Shown: one piece after another, positions 1,003-14,602 of the stretch
Layout of the letters: each line of letters begins with the position of its first letter
Numbering within the stretch: position 1 is the stretch's first letter
DNA from: a virus
Lineage: Duplodnaviria; Heunggongvirae; Uroviricota; Caudoviricetes
Length of the DNA stretch: 19,359 bases
Virus record (IMG/VR): IMGVR_UViG_2703718791_000007
Location: 1 to 19,359 of that record
Direction: 5' to 3' (one strand)
The notes under the pieces: model-generated
Databases searched by the model: none
What the model saw: the letters and a program-made list of their open reading frames with translations, nothing else
Told to the model about the DNA's origin: nothing
Made by a program: the position numbers and the translations under genes

Positions 1003-1701
1003 TTACTGCGAAAGTTTATTGATGGAAAGGAAACCGCCAAAATTGACCGCCATGCCGCGCATCTCACACCCGCGCATGCATTTACTGCATCTGTCCTTCC
1101 GGATATCCGTGGTGGGTTTATCGAACTCATCCGCCACAGCCCCGCCCGTGTAACCACACTCATCAGAGCGGTAGGTCCACATACAGGTGTTCGCCAGCAT
1201 GATACGACCGGGAAACAGCGCTCCGTCCGTCTCGGTCGGTGTGGCCAGCACAAACGAGGCCGTCATGGCTGTCAGCTGCGACATCTGCTCCACCACCCAG
1301 CGGTCGCTCAGCTCCTGCTCCGGGTCCGCTTCCGGATTGCCCGCCACAAAATTCACCGCATCCAGAAAACGGGCATACACCCGGCGGCGGACCACCGTGG
1401 CCCCCACCAGGCTCTGCAGGTCCTCCGCCATCCCGGTGACCAGACCAAACAGATTGGACACCGTCAGCGACGGTCTGGCACTGCTGCCCTTCCCGTTCAT
1501 CTCAAAGCCACTGCCGTCAATCGGGTATGCCTGATATTGCCGCCCCTGCCAGGTGACCGCCTCCCCTTTTTCATTCAGCTCATTGCAGAAAAAATACCGC
1601 TCACCACCCTGTACCGTCAGGTCGATTTCCCAGAGTACCACCCGCGGTGACTGCTCTGATTTAACCGACTCGTTCAGACTTTCTTCGTGAATATCCTGCA
1701 T
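1003..1701 (-). CDS. L: Minor tail protein L
   Basis: 232-aa ORF, MQDIHEESLNE...FGGFLSINKLSQ, with the C-terminal Cys cluster; collinear with lambda gpL as recalled. Its ATG overlaps the M stop as ATGA. Confidence 0.92.
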   Translation of the reverse strand: MQDIHEESLNESVKSEQSPRVVLWEIDLTVQGGERYFFCNELNEKGEAVTWQGRQYQAYPIDGSGFEMNGKGSSARPSLTVSNLFGLVTGMAEDLQSLVGATVVRRRVYARFLDAVNFVAGNPEADPEQELSDRWVVEQMSQLTAMTASFVLATPTETDGALFPGRIMLANTCMWTYRSDECGYTGGAVADEFDKPTTDIRKDRCSKCMRGCEMRGMAVNFGGFLSINKLSQ

Positions 1702-2030
1702 CAGTTCACCACCTGCTTAAACTCGGCACTGAATTCAACCCGCAGCATGCGAACCCGTGATGACCAGGCGGCACAGGTCACCTTTATCTGCCGCTAGGCA
1801 TAAGGCGGTGTCCACAGAAACGCCTTCCAGCCACCGTGCTCTGCCAGGAATGCCTCCAGATGTCGGGCCTCCTCCCGGGTCACGGAAAGCGTCACACGGT
1901 ATGTTTTCAGGTCAGCATTCAGCCCCGCCGCCATACGCTGCGAATACCCGTCACCAAAACGCACTTCACGCACCGATGGCTGCGAGTTCACCTCCATATC
2001 CGGCTTCACTTTCCAGCGAAATGTTTTCAT
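1701..2030 (-). pseudogene. M: Minor tail protein M interrupted by an in-frame TAG at 1794..1796 (codon 79 of 109)
   Basis: ORF 1794..2030 gives MKTFRWKVKP...FLWTPPYA then TAG. Continuing in the same frame gives RQIKVTCAAWSSRVRMLRVEFSAEFKQVVN then TGA at 1701..1703, matching the lambda gpM C-terminus as recalled (YEWRQIKVTCAKWSSRVSMLRVEFSAEFEQVVN). The TAG sits where lambda has Trp. Confidence 0.85.
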
Positions 2031-12487: not shown

Positions 12488-12690
12488 AACCTCACTCCCA
12501 GCGGACGACGGCGACGCCGGGTTGTCCCCAGTACCGACTCCGCATCATTGATCGCCCGGTTAAGCTCATCCAGAGAAGCCGCCGTATATTCAATTCTGCG
12601 ACCATCTTTCTGGACAGACACCACCCGTTTACCGGTTAATAAATCAAGGCGCGCCTGACGCAGCGCCTGCAGTTCAGCGACTGTAACCAT
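12484..12690 (-). CDS. W: Head-tail joining protein W
   Basis: 68-aa ORF MVTVAELQALRQARLDLLTGKRVVSVQKDGRRIEYTAASLDELNRAINDAESVLG...; size and position match lambda gpW. Confidence 0.88.
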   Translation of the reverse strand: MVTVAELQALRQARLDLLTGKRVVSVQKDGRRIEYTAASLDELNRAINDAESVLGTTRRRRRPLGVRL

Positions 12691-14602
12691 TCACTCCTCC
12701 GGACAGCTTCGCTGCCAGTTCTTTCAGGGTTGGCCGGGTCGTCTCTTCTTCCCGGGATTTTGCCAGTACAGCCAGATCAAGCTGCCAGCGTTGCACGGAC
12801 ACACGTAATGCCGCGTAGGCATACACCAGGCAGTCCAGCGCTTCGTTACGCCGCTTTTTGTTATCCCACAGCAGACGCATCTTTCCTTTTTCCCACTTCT
12901 CCACCAGCTCTTCCGCCACCAGTTGCTGCGCCTCTGTCTGCGAAAAAATCTCCGGATCATCAGGAAAACGGATGGCATACGACGTGGCTTCATCCGCAGG
13001 CGAGGGATCGGCTTTCATACGGGCATAGAGAATTTCTTTTGCGGTGTCCGTTCCCACTTCACACAGATACACGCCCCGCTGATTGCGGGTTTTTGGCATG
13101 GTGATCACCGGCTTGCCATAGACAGATGCGCCTTTTACCGGCAGCCCCCGGAAAACACCGTGTTTTTTTGATCTCTGATAAACAATTTCACCATCGATCC
13201 CCCCGGTGTCCCAGCAGACACGGGAAATAGTCATTTCGGTGCCATCCGCATGGCGGTATTTTTTGTTGATCGCCGCATCCACACGTAACAGCGTCTCTTC
13301 CTCATCAGGACGCCCCATAATGATGATTTTATCCACCAGAAAGGCTTCCTCTCCCGGAGCCCATCCCCAGACATACATCTCAAAACGGTTTCGCTGCGAG
13401 TCAATGCCCGCCGTCAGATAAACCACCCGGGCAGGCACCGCCGCCGTGTAACGCACCACCTTATCCATCAGTACCTAGTGATCGAGTTTTTCGCCCACGG
13501 CCTCTTCCCAGGTCTCGCCCAGCGTGGTGTTCACAAAGGTTTTCAGGCCGTTGGGATCTTTCAGTGCATCCAGCCAGTCATAGACAATCTGTACCCAGGT
13601 GGTGAACGGACTGTACGCCGTCCAGATATGGAACGTGATGGAGCGCGGCGGCGGAATTTCATCACCCCGGGCGCTGAAAAACGTCAGACCGTCACGGGTC
13701 CACATGCCCGTGTTTTCACAGATCCACCGCCCGTTGCTCTGGTCCAGTTCAGACTGATGGATCACGCAGCCATGATGTTCACAGAGGTAGAAAACACTTT
13801 CAGGGCTGTCCTTCTCCCATTTAAGCCCAAAAGGCGTGGACTCATCGCCAAATTTCAGATACTGCTCCTCCCCACAGTGCGGGCAGGGCACATAAAAACG
13901 CATAAAATGCGCCGACTCGTTAGCGGCTTTTTCGATCTGGCAGGTGCCTTTGATTTTAGGCGTCGAGCCGCGAATGGATTTTGGCCACACCGACCCCTCA
14001 ATACGCTTATCCCCCAGCAGGGTTGGCGAGCCCTCTTTTTCGACATCCGGCTCGAACGAGGAAAGTTCGTCATAGCAGACCACGTCCACGGATTTTTCAC
14101 GGTAGTTTTTGGCGGCAGCGCCGCCCAGGCACCAGAAACCGACGCCCGATGAAAAGCGTTTCAGCGTGAGAGTATTGTCACGATGTTTACGACCCAGCCA
14201 TGGGGAAAGGTCTTTCAGGCATGGCACGTTCCGAATCGTCGCCTCCACGTGAGACTTCATAAAATCTTCAGCGGCAGAATCCGTGGGCTGAAAAAGCAGA
14301 CTGTTTCGGGATTTATGCTCAATAAAATACCCGACCACCCCCAGCAACATCTTTGTATAGCCAACACGGGCAGATTTAATCAGATTAACAGTGCGGATCT
14401 GATCATTCCCCATGCTGTTCATGATGGCGATCTGGAATGGCAGCGTTTTCCATTCGCCCTCACCATATGAAGATTCTTTAGGCAGATAATAATTTTGATC
14501 AGCCCATTCAACTGGCGTCACCGGCAATGCCCTTATCAGGGGCTGTAATGCAGTTGTGACAGCGCTCATCATATTATTCAGTTGTTGCTCTGATATATTC
14601 AT
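12674..14602 (-). pseudogene. A: Terminase large subunit A interrupted by one in-frame TAG at 13475..13477
   Basis: Track ORFs 13475..14659 and 12674..13468 are in the same frame and separated only by TAG: …TLGETWEEAVGEKLDH * VLMDKVVRYTAAVPARVVYLTAGIDSQ…, aligning without gaps to lambda gpA as recalled, where the stop position holds Glu. Likely true start MNISEQQ at ATG 14600..14602. Both halves are otherwise intact. Confidence 0.9.

Follow-up and report, generated by a model that had tools for sequence, protein, structure and literature searches.

Two amber codons at former Dcm sites in the late operon of a phage-21-like prophage of Escherichia coli

Amber mutations in the essential late genes of lambda are familiar from Campbell's sus mutants, laboratory-mutagenised stocks handled on supE or supF derivatives of E. 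coli K-12 that grow only on su+ hosts. The dcm gene is near-universal in E. coli, and work on very-short-patch (VSP) repair by Lieb was reportedly tied to mutational hotspots at Dcm sites. In lacI, amber hotspots at CCAGG are about 10-fold over-represented according to what a review relates of the original study (Coulondre 1978, via PMC12606429), and the Vsr endonuclease repairs mismatches of the CTWGG/CCWGG type (PMC2715241). Among pathogenic strains, the lambdoid prophages of E. coli O157 Sakai have been described as a "defective prophage pool" (Asadulghani et al. 2009, PMC2669165). Here we compare with these systems a stretch of 19,359 nt (henceforth the window) that constitutes the entire contig LOGC01000185.1 of draft assembly GCA_001606595.1, which comprises at least 185 contigs.

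The window most likely stems from a lambdoid prophage in the chromosome of an E. coli of the Shiga-toxin/attaching-effacing type and covers its late operon (packaging, head, and tail genes) and lysis module. The late operon is of the phage-21/lambda type, runs on the minus strand, and combines a head of the phage-21 type with a tail of the lambda type. According to the ORF map, Pfam matches, and the annotation of relatives, the gene order Nu1, A, W, B, C, D, E, FI, FII, Z, U, V, G/T, H, M, L, K is collinear with late operons of that type (Table 1). Pfam matches in the window support the assignment of A, M, Nu1, L, K, and H and were also obtained on sister loci, while the annotation of relatives at 99.8% and 94% identity agrees with the window's gene order. 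Genes I and J lie outside the window, as does the remainder of the prophage. The cosN 12-mer GGGCGGCGACCT is located upstream of Nu1, and the late genes have the lengths of those in plaque-forming phage PhiR12_2 save for small differences in H, in V, and in the annotated starts of Nu1 and FI. One end of the contig folds back on itself around a 145-nt loop that corresponds to the 5' end of gene I in opposite orientation, and the fold-back junction, which may be an artefact or a real rearrangement, had no match in the viral or species-representative genome collections.

Table 1. Features of the window (positions 1 to 19,359) and the evidence or remarks that accompany them.
Feature	Position	Strand	Evidence or remark
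Terminase large subunit gene A, 642 codons, TAG at codon 376	12674..14602	-	Translation, Pfam, intact 642-aa orthologues
ORF of 264 codons, remainder of the nuclease domain and C-terminus of A (predicted)	12674..13468	-	ORF list, Pfam
Tail-tip protein gene M, 109 codons, TAG at codon 79	1701..2030	-	Translation, Pfam, gpM structure match
Terminase small subunit gene Nu1 (longest ORF; relatives annotated with later starts)	14574..15185	-	Pfam Phage_Nu1, L001 annotation
cosN cohesive-end 12-mer GGGCGGCGACCT, same as lambda's	15296..15307	-	Sequence match
W, B (portal), C (S49 protease/scaffold), D, E, FI, FII, Z, U, V, G, T, H, no interruptions	2027..12690	-	ORFs, annotation, length comparison
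Slippery heptamer GGGAAAG (-1 frameshift signal of G/T), 3' end of G	5021-5027	-	Sequence match
Tail protein gene L, 232 aa, intact in the window	1003..1701	-	Pfam, sister-copy comparison
G5 run inside L	1402-1406		G6 (frameshift) in all other double-amber copies examined
Tail protein gene K (JAB + NlpC/P60), last ~4 codons swapped at the fold-back junction	246..992	-	Pfam, contig-end comparison
Contig-end fold-back	1..363		Arms 1-109 and 255-363, 98% complementary
IS3-family insertion site of sister copies	15617..15625		Uninterrupted in the window
Former Dcm site in A	13474..13478		+ strand CCTAG now, CCTGG in relatives
Former Dcm site in M	1794..1798		+ strand CTAGG now, CCAGG in relatives

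A preliminary description of this DNA had reported one amber codon each in A and M as the only visible lesions of an otherwise intact morphogenetic operon. Translation confirmed a single internal stop in each gene, TAG at codon 376 of A (window 13475-13477) and at codon 79 of M (window 1794-1796), and found internal stops to be absent from Nu1, W, B, C, D, E, FI, FII, Z, U, V, G, T, H, and L. The claim that nothing else is damaged stands for the reading frames of the window, but it has to be qualified for K, which is clipped by the contig-end fold-back, and it does not extend to the sister copies of the element, given that L is frameshifted in every other double-amber copy examined. In M, the change is C1795>T, which on the coding strand turned an ancestral CCTGG into CCTAG and TGG (Trp79) into TAG, as the deamination of an inner 5-methylcytosine would. 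In A, the change is G13477>A, equivalent to the deamination of a 5-methylcytosine on the minus strand, by which coding-strand CCAGG became CTAGG and CAG (Gln376) became TAG.

The window's gpM matches lambda gpM (PDB 8iyk_M) end to end, lambda residue 79 being Trp, and carries the Pfam family Phage_min_tail at 1-76/108. Codon 79 is TGG in one family of M alleles and TAC in another. An origin of the M stop by recombination between such alleles was considered and rejected in favor of a point mutation, since TGG-type sequence flanks the changed base on both sides and a conversion tract of 1-2 nt would be needed. A truncated gpM without the last 31 of its 109 residues would, to go by lambda genetics, fail in tail-tip assembly. 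For gpA, no solved structure was matched by sequence, but Pfam places the GpA_ATPase domain at residues 48-293 and the GpA_nuclease domain across the stop, which breaks it at profile positions ~57/61 of 294; intact 642-aa orthologues are found in related loci L001, L027, and L028 and in PhiR12_2. The product of the amber allele should thus comprise the ATPase domain but only about the first 57 positions of the nuclease domain. It would also be without the C-terminal end, by which lambda terminase A binds the portal, and lambda biology predicts that cos cleavage and packaging should fail. Loss of function of both truncated proteins is therefore probable by analogy with lambda. In 85 blocks of the assembly collection, gene calls likewise give A(1-375) and then an ORF of 264 aa on its own, which speaks against a sequencing error. 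An ATG lies two codons past the amber codon. Translational restart at this 264-codon ORF as a source of gpA function is unlikely, because only a weak AGG is found 5 nt upstream of the ATG and the stop interrupts the nuclease domain.

Comparison with the closest relatives of the prophage revealed sense codons, CAG in A and TGG in M. The prophage of strain OkiPb01713, 99.83% identical to the window, has both of them with A and M annotated as intact, and the same codons are present in L027 and L028. The two nonsense changes are the only substitutions between the amber lineage and the ancestor that it shares with L001/L027 over ~18 kb (position 9818 being derived on the other side). Exact 81-mers with the amber codon occur in 1 of 1,678 (A) and 1 of 430 (M) complete E. 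coli genomes that hold the respective segment, in both cases annotated as "internal stop", and PGAP accordingly labels both amber alleles as pseudogenes. To judge from these genomes, both alleles are derived and rare.

The two alleles occur together in further assemblies, including PVMF01000005 (a 4.4 Mb contig), AEZJ02000009, BGBU01000109, IMG/VR UViG_2534681674_000020, and assemblies derived from SRA data. They are also joined in JAOWMY010000002, which was assembled with Raven for strain ECA34 (STEC O5:H9) in a project that combined long and short reads (PMC10019233). Sister copies are embedded in contigs of 4.4 Mb, 4.6 Mb, and 0.55 Mb and are hence chromosomal, while the window stands alone as a contig of 19.4 kb. 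Beyond the two ambers, these copies have decayed further: All other double-amber copies examined share a G5>G6 frameshift in L, and an IS3-family insertion between the lysis genes and Nu1, an IS in the lysozyme gene, and a split SASA esterase were found among them, with IS3-family insertions at two sites altogether. L001, where A and M are intact, has frameshifts in J and in a DUF6645 gene (a SASA-esterase homologue). The window has neither the L frameshift nor an IS insertion and looks intact besides its two ambers and the contig-end fold-back. The lesions of the sister copies indicate relaxed selection.

Each amber arose by a G:C>A:T transition that hit the inner C of CCWGG, the base that Dcm methylates. 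The operon contains 34 Dcm sites, and their 68 5-methylcytosine positions make up 0.8% of its G:C pairs; the chance that two arbitrary G:C>A:T changes would both hit such positions is 7e-5. If only those transitions are counted that create TAG, 21 of 294 routes in the operon start from a 5-methylcytosine position, and the probability for both is (21/294)^2 = 0.005. Deamination at the 68 positions would yield a nonsense codon in 21 cases, and all 21 are TAG. That both stops are TAG is by itself not improbable: From the codon content of the operon, the probability of TAG given a nonsense codon is 0.5-0.68, which gives 0.25-0.46 for both, compared to 1.0 if nonsense codons arise via Dcm deamination only. 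The two stops are then both TAG because every nonsense codon that deamination of a Dcm site can create in this operon is TAG. Two nonsense changes in two substitutions have a neutral expectation of ~0.003 without hotspots and remain uncommon with 10-fold hotspots, a pattern that is partly due to how the window was chosen. Dcm methylation of both sites in this host is presumed from the sequence context.

We also asked whether other Dcm sites of the operon are hit in other prophages by exact look-up of the predicted truncated proteins, an approach confounded by partial genes at contig ends. Of 9 other Dcm sites, 3 had a verified internal TAG (B112, U58, and E125) versus 1 of 9 matched controls (E130), a non-significant trend (one-sided Fisher test, 0.29). 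The verified Dcm ambers comprise portal W112 with 121 blocks, U W58 with 70 blocks in six backgrounds that are 88-99% identical, and E Q125. Apparent recurrent ambers at A364, L50, B92, and L56 were discarded as they all proved to be contig-end partials, and position H138 gave a candidate match to its predicted truncated protein. The 81-mers of the predicted ambers B112 and U58 and of the controls B93 and E130 had zero exact matches in complete genomes.

Taken together, we consider it probable, at roughly 85%, that the window belongs to a plain defective prophage that was functional until very recently and lost A and M to two Dcm-site deaminations, with no need for a suppressor-dependent lifestyle. 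Carried passively in the chromosome, its virion genes would have been under no selection, and two spontaneous deaminations of Dcm-methylated cytosines, one in A and one in M, would have escaped very-short-patch repair. Such an element could presumably not make infectious particles on its own, and the pair of TAG codons would reflect the chemistry and sequence of Dcm sites instead of life on suppressor hosts. The marks of a defective prophage were all found, namely chromosomal integration, presumably inactivating mutations in essential particle genes, and extra lesions in sister copies. The suggestion of a very recently inactivated prophage in the preliminary description is thus borne out by intact closest relatives that differ by only these two substitutions in ~18 kb, by the chromosomal contigs, and by the pseudogene calls. 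Its statement that this is no laboratory lambda derivative likewise held up, given that the prophage is phage-21-like, shares ~88% identity with phage 21 and phages of the lambda group, and occurs in wild STEC lineages.

A defective prophage may still move, and it is conceivable, if on balance rather unlikely, that co-resident lambdoid prophages complement A and M in trans while packaging proceeds via the element's own cos; this would be compatible with the explanation favored above. The canonical cosN and intact Nu1 agree with this idea, as do the many lambdoid segments in related genomes that match the window (21 matching places in the closest complete genome) and the precedent of O157 Sakai, where prophages defective in morphogenesis and terminase genes are complemented in trans and packaged (PMC2669165). 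However, the specificity of terminase (Nu1/cosB) would require a matching helper, and the IS between the lysis genes and Nu1 in sister copies suggests that late operon function is not under selection.

It is improbable that the host lineage favored the loss of virion production and that selection for such disarming made both substitutions on the branch nonsense changes. Two out of two branch substitutions are indeed nonsense and the double-amber copy has been fixed in a sampled STEC lineage, but A- and M- mutations do not stop induction or lysis, the lysis genes are intact, and no benefit to the cell is evident, while hotspot mutation and the post-hoc choice of the window are enough to account for the pattern.

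More improbable again is a suppressor-dependent, conditional-lethal phage, as had been proposed initially, in which A and M would be read through by an amber-suppressor tRNA of this host or its usual hosts and the phage would be viable. Both stops are TAG, and the window has cosN, the lysis genes, and the rest of the operon intact; a suppressor inserting Gln would restore wild-type gpA, and one inserting Tyr would give gpM with Tyr79, a residue seen in natural intact alleles. Yet the pair of TAG codons is accounted for by Dcm hotspots, and sister double-amber copies bear extra inactivating lesions as expected without selection. Moreover, holin and orf185 end in TAG, and read-through of the holin stop would fuse both. 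ARAGORN, run on the window and on seven flanking loci (+/-10 kb around sister copies), detected no tRNA. A supF-type tyrT allele is present in 0 of 5,426 complete E. coli genomes, and the supE-type glnV allele has exact matches in 155 of these 5,426, with 40 of 40 among the matches listed being K-12 laboratory derivatives. The host is thus probably free of an amber suppressor, and the proposal is not upheld.

Sequencing or assembly artefacts, in the form of consensus errors or chimeras between paralogous prophages such as a fragmented draft from short reads might contain, were also considered as the source of the two stops. The window is a whole contig of such a draft with a suspicious fold-back at one end, and genomes of this kind contain several near-identical prophages. 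Nevertheless, both alleles are found together in independent assemblies including Mb-scale contigs and the long/short-read project, the TAG of M was read directly in at least 5 other independent assemblies, and each amber allele is also present in a complete RefSeq genome. Both TAGs are genuine and not sequencing errors because the same alleles recur in independent assemblies, and for these alleles an artefact, very improbable to begin with, is already effectively refuted. Programmed read-through or recoding at conserved regulatory stops has nothing in its favor beyond the in-frame stops themselves and is, on the comparative data, already refuted and of negligible probability: The complete genomes that hold the segment (430 for M and 1,678 for A) carry sense codons there with one exception each, and lambda gpM has Trp at position 79.

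Defective prophages of STEC and amber hotspots at Dcm sites are both long established, and this case opens no new question. It illustrates that the same stop codon in two essential genes can be the signature of a mutational process and need not point to a way of life, which is useful in the triage of prophage pseudogenes: When a nonsense codon is encountered in an E. coli prophage, its CCWGG context should be checked before suppression, recoding, or selection is invoked. We suggest only tentatively, and would sooner bet against it, that lambdoid prophages in Dcm+ E. coli may lose virion genes preferentially via CCWGG ambers, with M79, A376, portal W112, U W58, and E Q125 hit repeatedly in independent backgrounds, TAG as the characteristic stop, and spent Dcm sites usable as a clock since the last lytic cycle.

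Compared to Campbell's lambda sus mutants Aam and Mam, the element likewise has ambers in two essential genes of a late operon of the lambda type, A and M, but it is ~88% identical to lambda-group phages, comes from wild STEC isolates, and was seen with no associated suppressor. With phage 21 and PhiR12-type phages, it shares the gene order Nu1-A-W-B-C-D-E-FI-FII-Z-U-V-G-T-H-M-L-K at a DNA identity of 88-94%, whereas A and M of these phages are intact and they form plaques. The Dcm amber hotspots of lacI (Coulondre, Miller, Farabaugh, and Gilbert 1978) represent the same change, in which the inner C of CCWGG is lost to give CTAGG or CCTAG and CAG or TGG becomes an in-frame TAG; those cases arose in a K-12 laboratory reporter, while here they are fixed natural alleles of prophage genes at sites whose methylation is presumed from sequence. 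Finally, the defective prophages of O157 Sakai are likewise chromosomal, lambda-like elements of a Shiga-toxin-type E. coli with many siblings, small lesions in packaging or morphogenesis, and most genes intact. Their lesions are IS insertions or deletions in contrast to the two point nonsense mutations of the window, but lesions of the kinds seen in O157 Sakai, IS insertions and frameshifts, are also found in the sister copies of this prophage.

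The window corresponds to the entire 19,359-base contig LOGC01000185.1 of a draft E. coli assembly (GCA_001606595.1), in which the late genes keep the lambda order and all lie on the minus strand. At the DNA level it shares 88% identity with phage 21 and lambda-group phages, 94% with the plaque-forming PhiR12 phages, and 94-99.8% with STEC/EPEC prophages of serogroups O103, O55:H7, O45:H2, and O111. We conclude that it is a lambdoid prophage of STEC-type E. coli, inactivated recently and well preserved in other respects, and that, as judged from their sequence context, the amber codons in A and M are spontaneous mutations at predicted Dcm 5-methylcytosine hotspots.

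Features of the late operon and neighboring regions (window coordinates)
Feature	Position	Strand	Remark
Nu1	14574-15185	-	
A	12674-14602	-	
W	12484-12690	-	
B	10895-12487	-	portal
C	9400-10905	-	S49 protease/scaffold
D	9016-9363	-	
E	7930-8958	-	
FI	7495-7878	-	
FII	7149-7502	-	
Z	6600-7133	-	
U	6208-6603	-	
V	5448-6200	-	
G	5003-5434	-	
G/T slippery heptamer GGGAAAG	3' end of G		
T	4563-4976	-	
H	2027-4582	-	
M	1701-2030	-	
L	1003-1701	-	
K	246-992	-	
Lambda cohesive-end 12-mer GGGCGGCGACCT (cosN)	15296-15307		upstream of Nu1
YlcI/YnfO (DUF3950) gene	15507-15692	+	inside AT-rich stretch
Lysis module	about 16.5-19.0 kb		class II holin, 185-aa ORF, lysozyme, Rz

Translation confirmed the preliminary description in that A and M each contain exactly one in-frame TAG, at codon 376 of A (13475-13477) and codon 79 of M (1794-1796). 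In A, the GpA_ATPase domain is complete and the stop interrupts the 294-position GpA_nuclease profile at about position 57 (Pfam), while M loses 31 of its 109 residues; window M aligns end to end with gpM of lambda (PDB 8iyk_M), where position 79 is also Trp. Natural intact M alleles encode Trp (TGG) or Tyr (TAC) at this codon, with TAG one step from each, and flanking sequence places the amber allele on the TGG haplotype. All remaining late genes in the window are open reading frames, and gene lengths equal those of the functional relative PhiR12_2 except that H and V differ slightly, as do the annotated starts of Nu1 and FI. The earlier statement that the other late genes are intact stands, with a qualification for K: about four codons at its end have given way to other sequence at a fold-back junction, and I and J lie outside the window.

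At this contig end, bases 1-265 correspond, in reverse complement, to the K-end/I-start junction and share 97.7% identity with a relative's own copy, which makes another prophage copy their probable source. The junction to K shows a 5-nt microhomology (TGAGG), and the fold-back arms (1-109 and 255-363, spanning window 1-363) are 98% complementary. The structure could be an artefact, from a chimeric read or from assembly, or else a genuine inverted rearrangement that removes I and J.

The ancestral state of both codons is seen in the closest complete genome, strain OkiPb01713 from bovine faeces (99.83% identity over 19.1 kb), where codon A376 is CAG, codon M79 is TGG, and A and M are both annotated as intact, and in two draft relatives (L027 and L028) that are intact at both sites. 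The changes are thus Gln CAG>TAG in A and Trp TGG>TAG in M, both G:C>A:T transitions. Recurrence of both amber alleles in other assemblies effectively rules out sequencing error. A(1-375) with a 264-aa ORF called separately after it occurs in 85 blocks of the assembly collection, and the M TAG was seen directly in PVMF, AEZJ, BGBU, LOHC, E105, and IMG/VR sequences; many "78-aa M" records are genes cut at contig ends and were discounted as evidence. Both ambers occur together in PVMF01000005 (a 4.4 Mb contig), AEZJ02000009 (the same as IMG/VR UViG_2534681674_000020), and JAOWMY010000002 (a 4.6 Mb contig), the last from STEC O5:H9 strain ECA34 (stx1a, eae+), a Raven assembly of a long- and short-read project (PMC10019233). 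For BGBU01000109, the M stop alone was read, as the fetched stretch ends short of A. Across 5,426 complete E. coli genomes, the exact M amber 81-mer was found in 1 of 430 that carry the segment (E105, A intact) and the exact A amber 81-mer in 1 of 1,678 (O111:NM 2010C-3053, M intact and of a different allele type); the NCBI pipeline flags E105 M and 2010C-3053 A as pseudogenes ("internal stop"). The prophage backgrounds of these lone alleles differ, and the amber-bearing blocks are near-identical to the window over at least 3 kb around A and about 1 kb around M with diverged flanks, a sequence pattern that points to inter-prophage exchange or recurrent hotspot hits.

Given the codon content of the operon, a random nonsense mutation is TAG with a probability of 0.5-0.68 and two are both TAG with 0.25-0.46, so that the coincidence is not remarkable by codon content alone. 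Dcm context would explain more of it. On the ancestral coding strand, the sequence is GCCTGGCG around M79 and CACCAGGTA around A376. Each contains CCWGG, which the E. coli Dcm cytosine methylase recognizes, and the mutated base is in each case the inner, predicted methylated C (template strand for M, coding strand for A). Deamination of 5-methylcytosine yields thymine and would convert CCAGG to CTAGG at A376 and CCTGG to CCTAG at M79. The operon has 34 Dcm sites, i.e., 68 predicted methylated positions or 0.8% of its G:C pairs; 21 of the 68 possible deaminations create nonsense codons, TAG in 21/21, and these account for 21 of 294 transition routes to TAG. With every route given the same likelihood, both ambers would lie on Dcm positions with a probability of (21/294)^2 = 0.005, and any two G:C>A:T changes would do so with 7e-5. 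In lacI, the second C of CCAGG is a spontaneous amber hotspot, about ten-fold over-represented (Coulondre, Miller, Farabaugh, and Gilbert 1978, as reviewed in PMC12606429), and Vsr very-short-patch repair counteracts such hotspots (PMC2715241). With ten-fold hotspots, about 43% of the operon's transition-derived ambers are expected at Dcm sites, which makes two out of two unsurprising (about 19%).

Dcm-driven ambers predict that other predicted Dcm sites are mutated in other prophages. For ten further Dcm sites and, as controls, nine neighboring non-Dcm CAG/TGG codons, we searched for exact matches to the predicted truncated protein and then inspected the DNA behind a subset of the matches. 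Internal TAGs were confirmed at portal W112 (CCTGG>CCTAG, 121 blocks), U W58 (CCTGG>CCTAG, 70 blocks in six backgrounds with flanks 88-99% identical), and E Q125 (CCAGG>CTAGG, two flanking haplotypes). The H139 Dcm site matched at the truncated-protein look-up only and was left out of the verified set, and five other Dcm sites gave no match or contig-end partials alone. Of the nine controls, six had no match, two matched contig-end partials, and one, E Q130, proved to be a genuine internal TAG. A search of the complete-genome set for four of the predicted or control ambers found none of them. This recurrence (Dcm 3/9 versus control 1/9, one-sided Fisher 0.29) is a supportive trend, not proof, and the three confirmed Dcm ambers in many other E. 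coli prophages may have arisen repeatedly or been spread by recombination.

Since its common ancestor with the OkiPb01713 prophage and L027, the double-amber lineage has acquired no substitutions in about 18 kb other than the two nonsense changes, with position 9818 derived on the OkiPb01713/L027 side. Inactivation is therefore recent, in line with the earlier suggestion of a very recently inactivated prophage. Decay has gone further in every other double-amber copy examined. In all of them L is frameshifted by a G5>G6 change, and sister copies have an IS3-family element inserted at window 15617-15625, in the interval from the lysis genes to Nu1/cos. In AEZJ, moreover, an IS interrupts the lysozyme gene and the SASA esterase is split. 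The window is uninterrupted at the IS3 site, a break point of short-read contigs in many isolates, and its L gene is in frame with G5 at 1402-1406, a homopolymer hotspot. Since L027, with A and M intact, also has the G6 frameshift, this G-run is homoplastic or recombination-exchanged; it is G5 in PhiR12_2 and GGGTG in OkiPb01713, and the window's G5 may be ancestral, may have arisen by reversion, or may be an error in the consensus. The OkiPb01713 prophage has frameshifts in J and the esterase.

Further features lie around the lysis genes and cos. The holin ends in TAG (18795-18800) and is followed in the same frame by the 185/186-aa ORF, so that read-through would give a fusion; this ORF is without Pfam match, and its spacing to the holin is equal in OkiPb01713 and PhiR12_2. 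Between cos and the lysis genes, an AT-rich stretch (15200-16500, GC 0.40-0.44 versus 0.55-0.60 in the operon) looks like inserted cargo. A 13-bp deletion (TTTGATTATCCCC) at 16217 relative to all relatives is unique to this contig and lies between the Rz region and small ORFs, where no gene is annotated. At cosN, the window has the canonical lambda 12-mer; in the OkiPb01713 prophage, whose A and M are intact, the 12-mer contains a substitution (GGGCGGCGAGCT; window 15298, OkiPb01713 locus 18048).

Compatible with recent inactivation, the element might still be packaged with its intact cosN and Nu1 if co-resident lambdoid prophages supply gpA and gpM. The other earlier suggestion, a suppressor-dependent phage kept viable by amber readthrough, is unsupported and highly improbable: tRNA genes are absent from the window and from within 10 kb of seven related loci, a supF-type tyrT allele occurs in 0 of 5,426 complete E. 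coli genomes, 155 of the same genomes match the supE-type glnV allele exactly, with K-12 laboratory derivatives making up all 40 matches listed, and the unrelated lesions of the sister copies, a pattern expected under relaxed selection, argue against continued propagation via a suppressor. The recently inactivated prophage that we describe belongs to a defective type that has long been known, as has the Dcm mutational mechanism. Packaging by complementation through co-resident prophages was shown for the defective prophages of O157 Sakai (PMC2669165), a precedent for what might happen to the element in the window.
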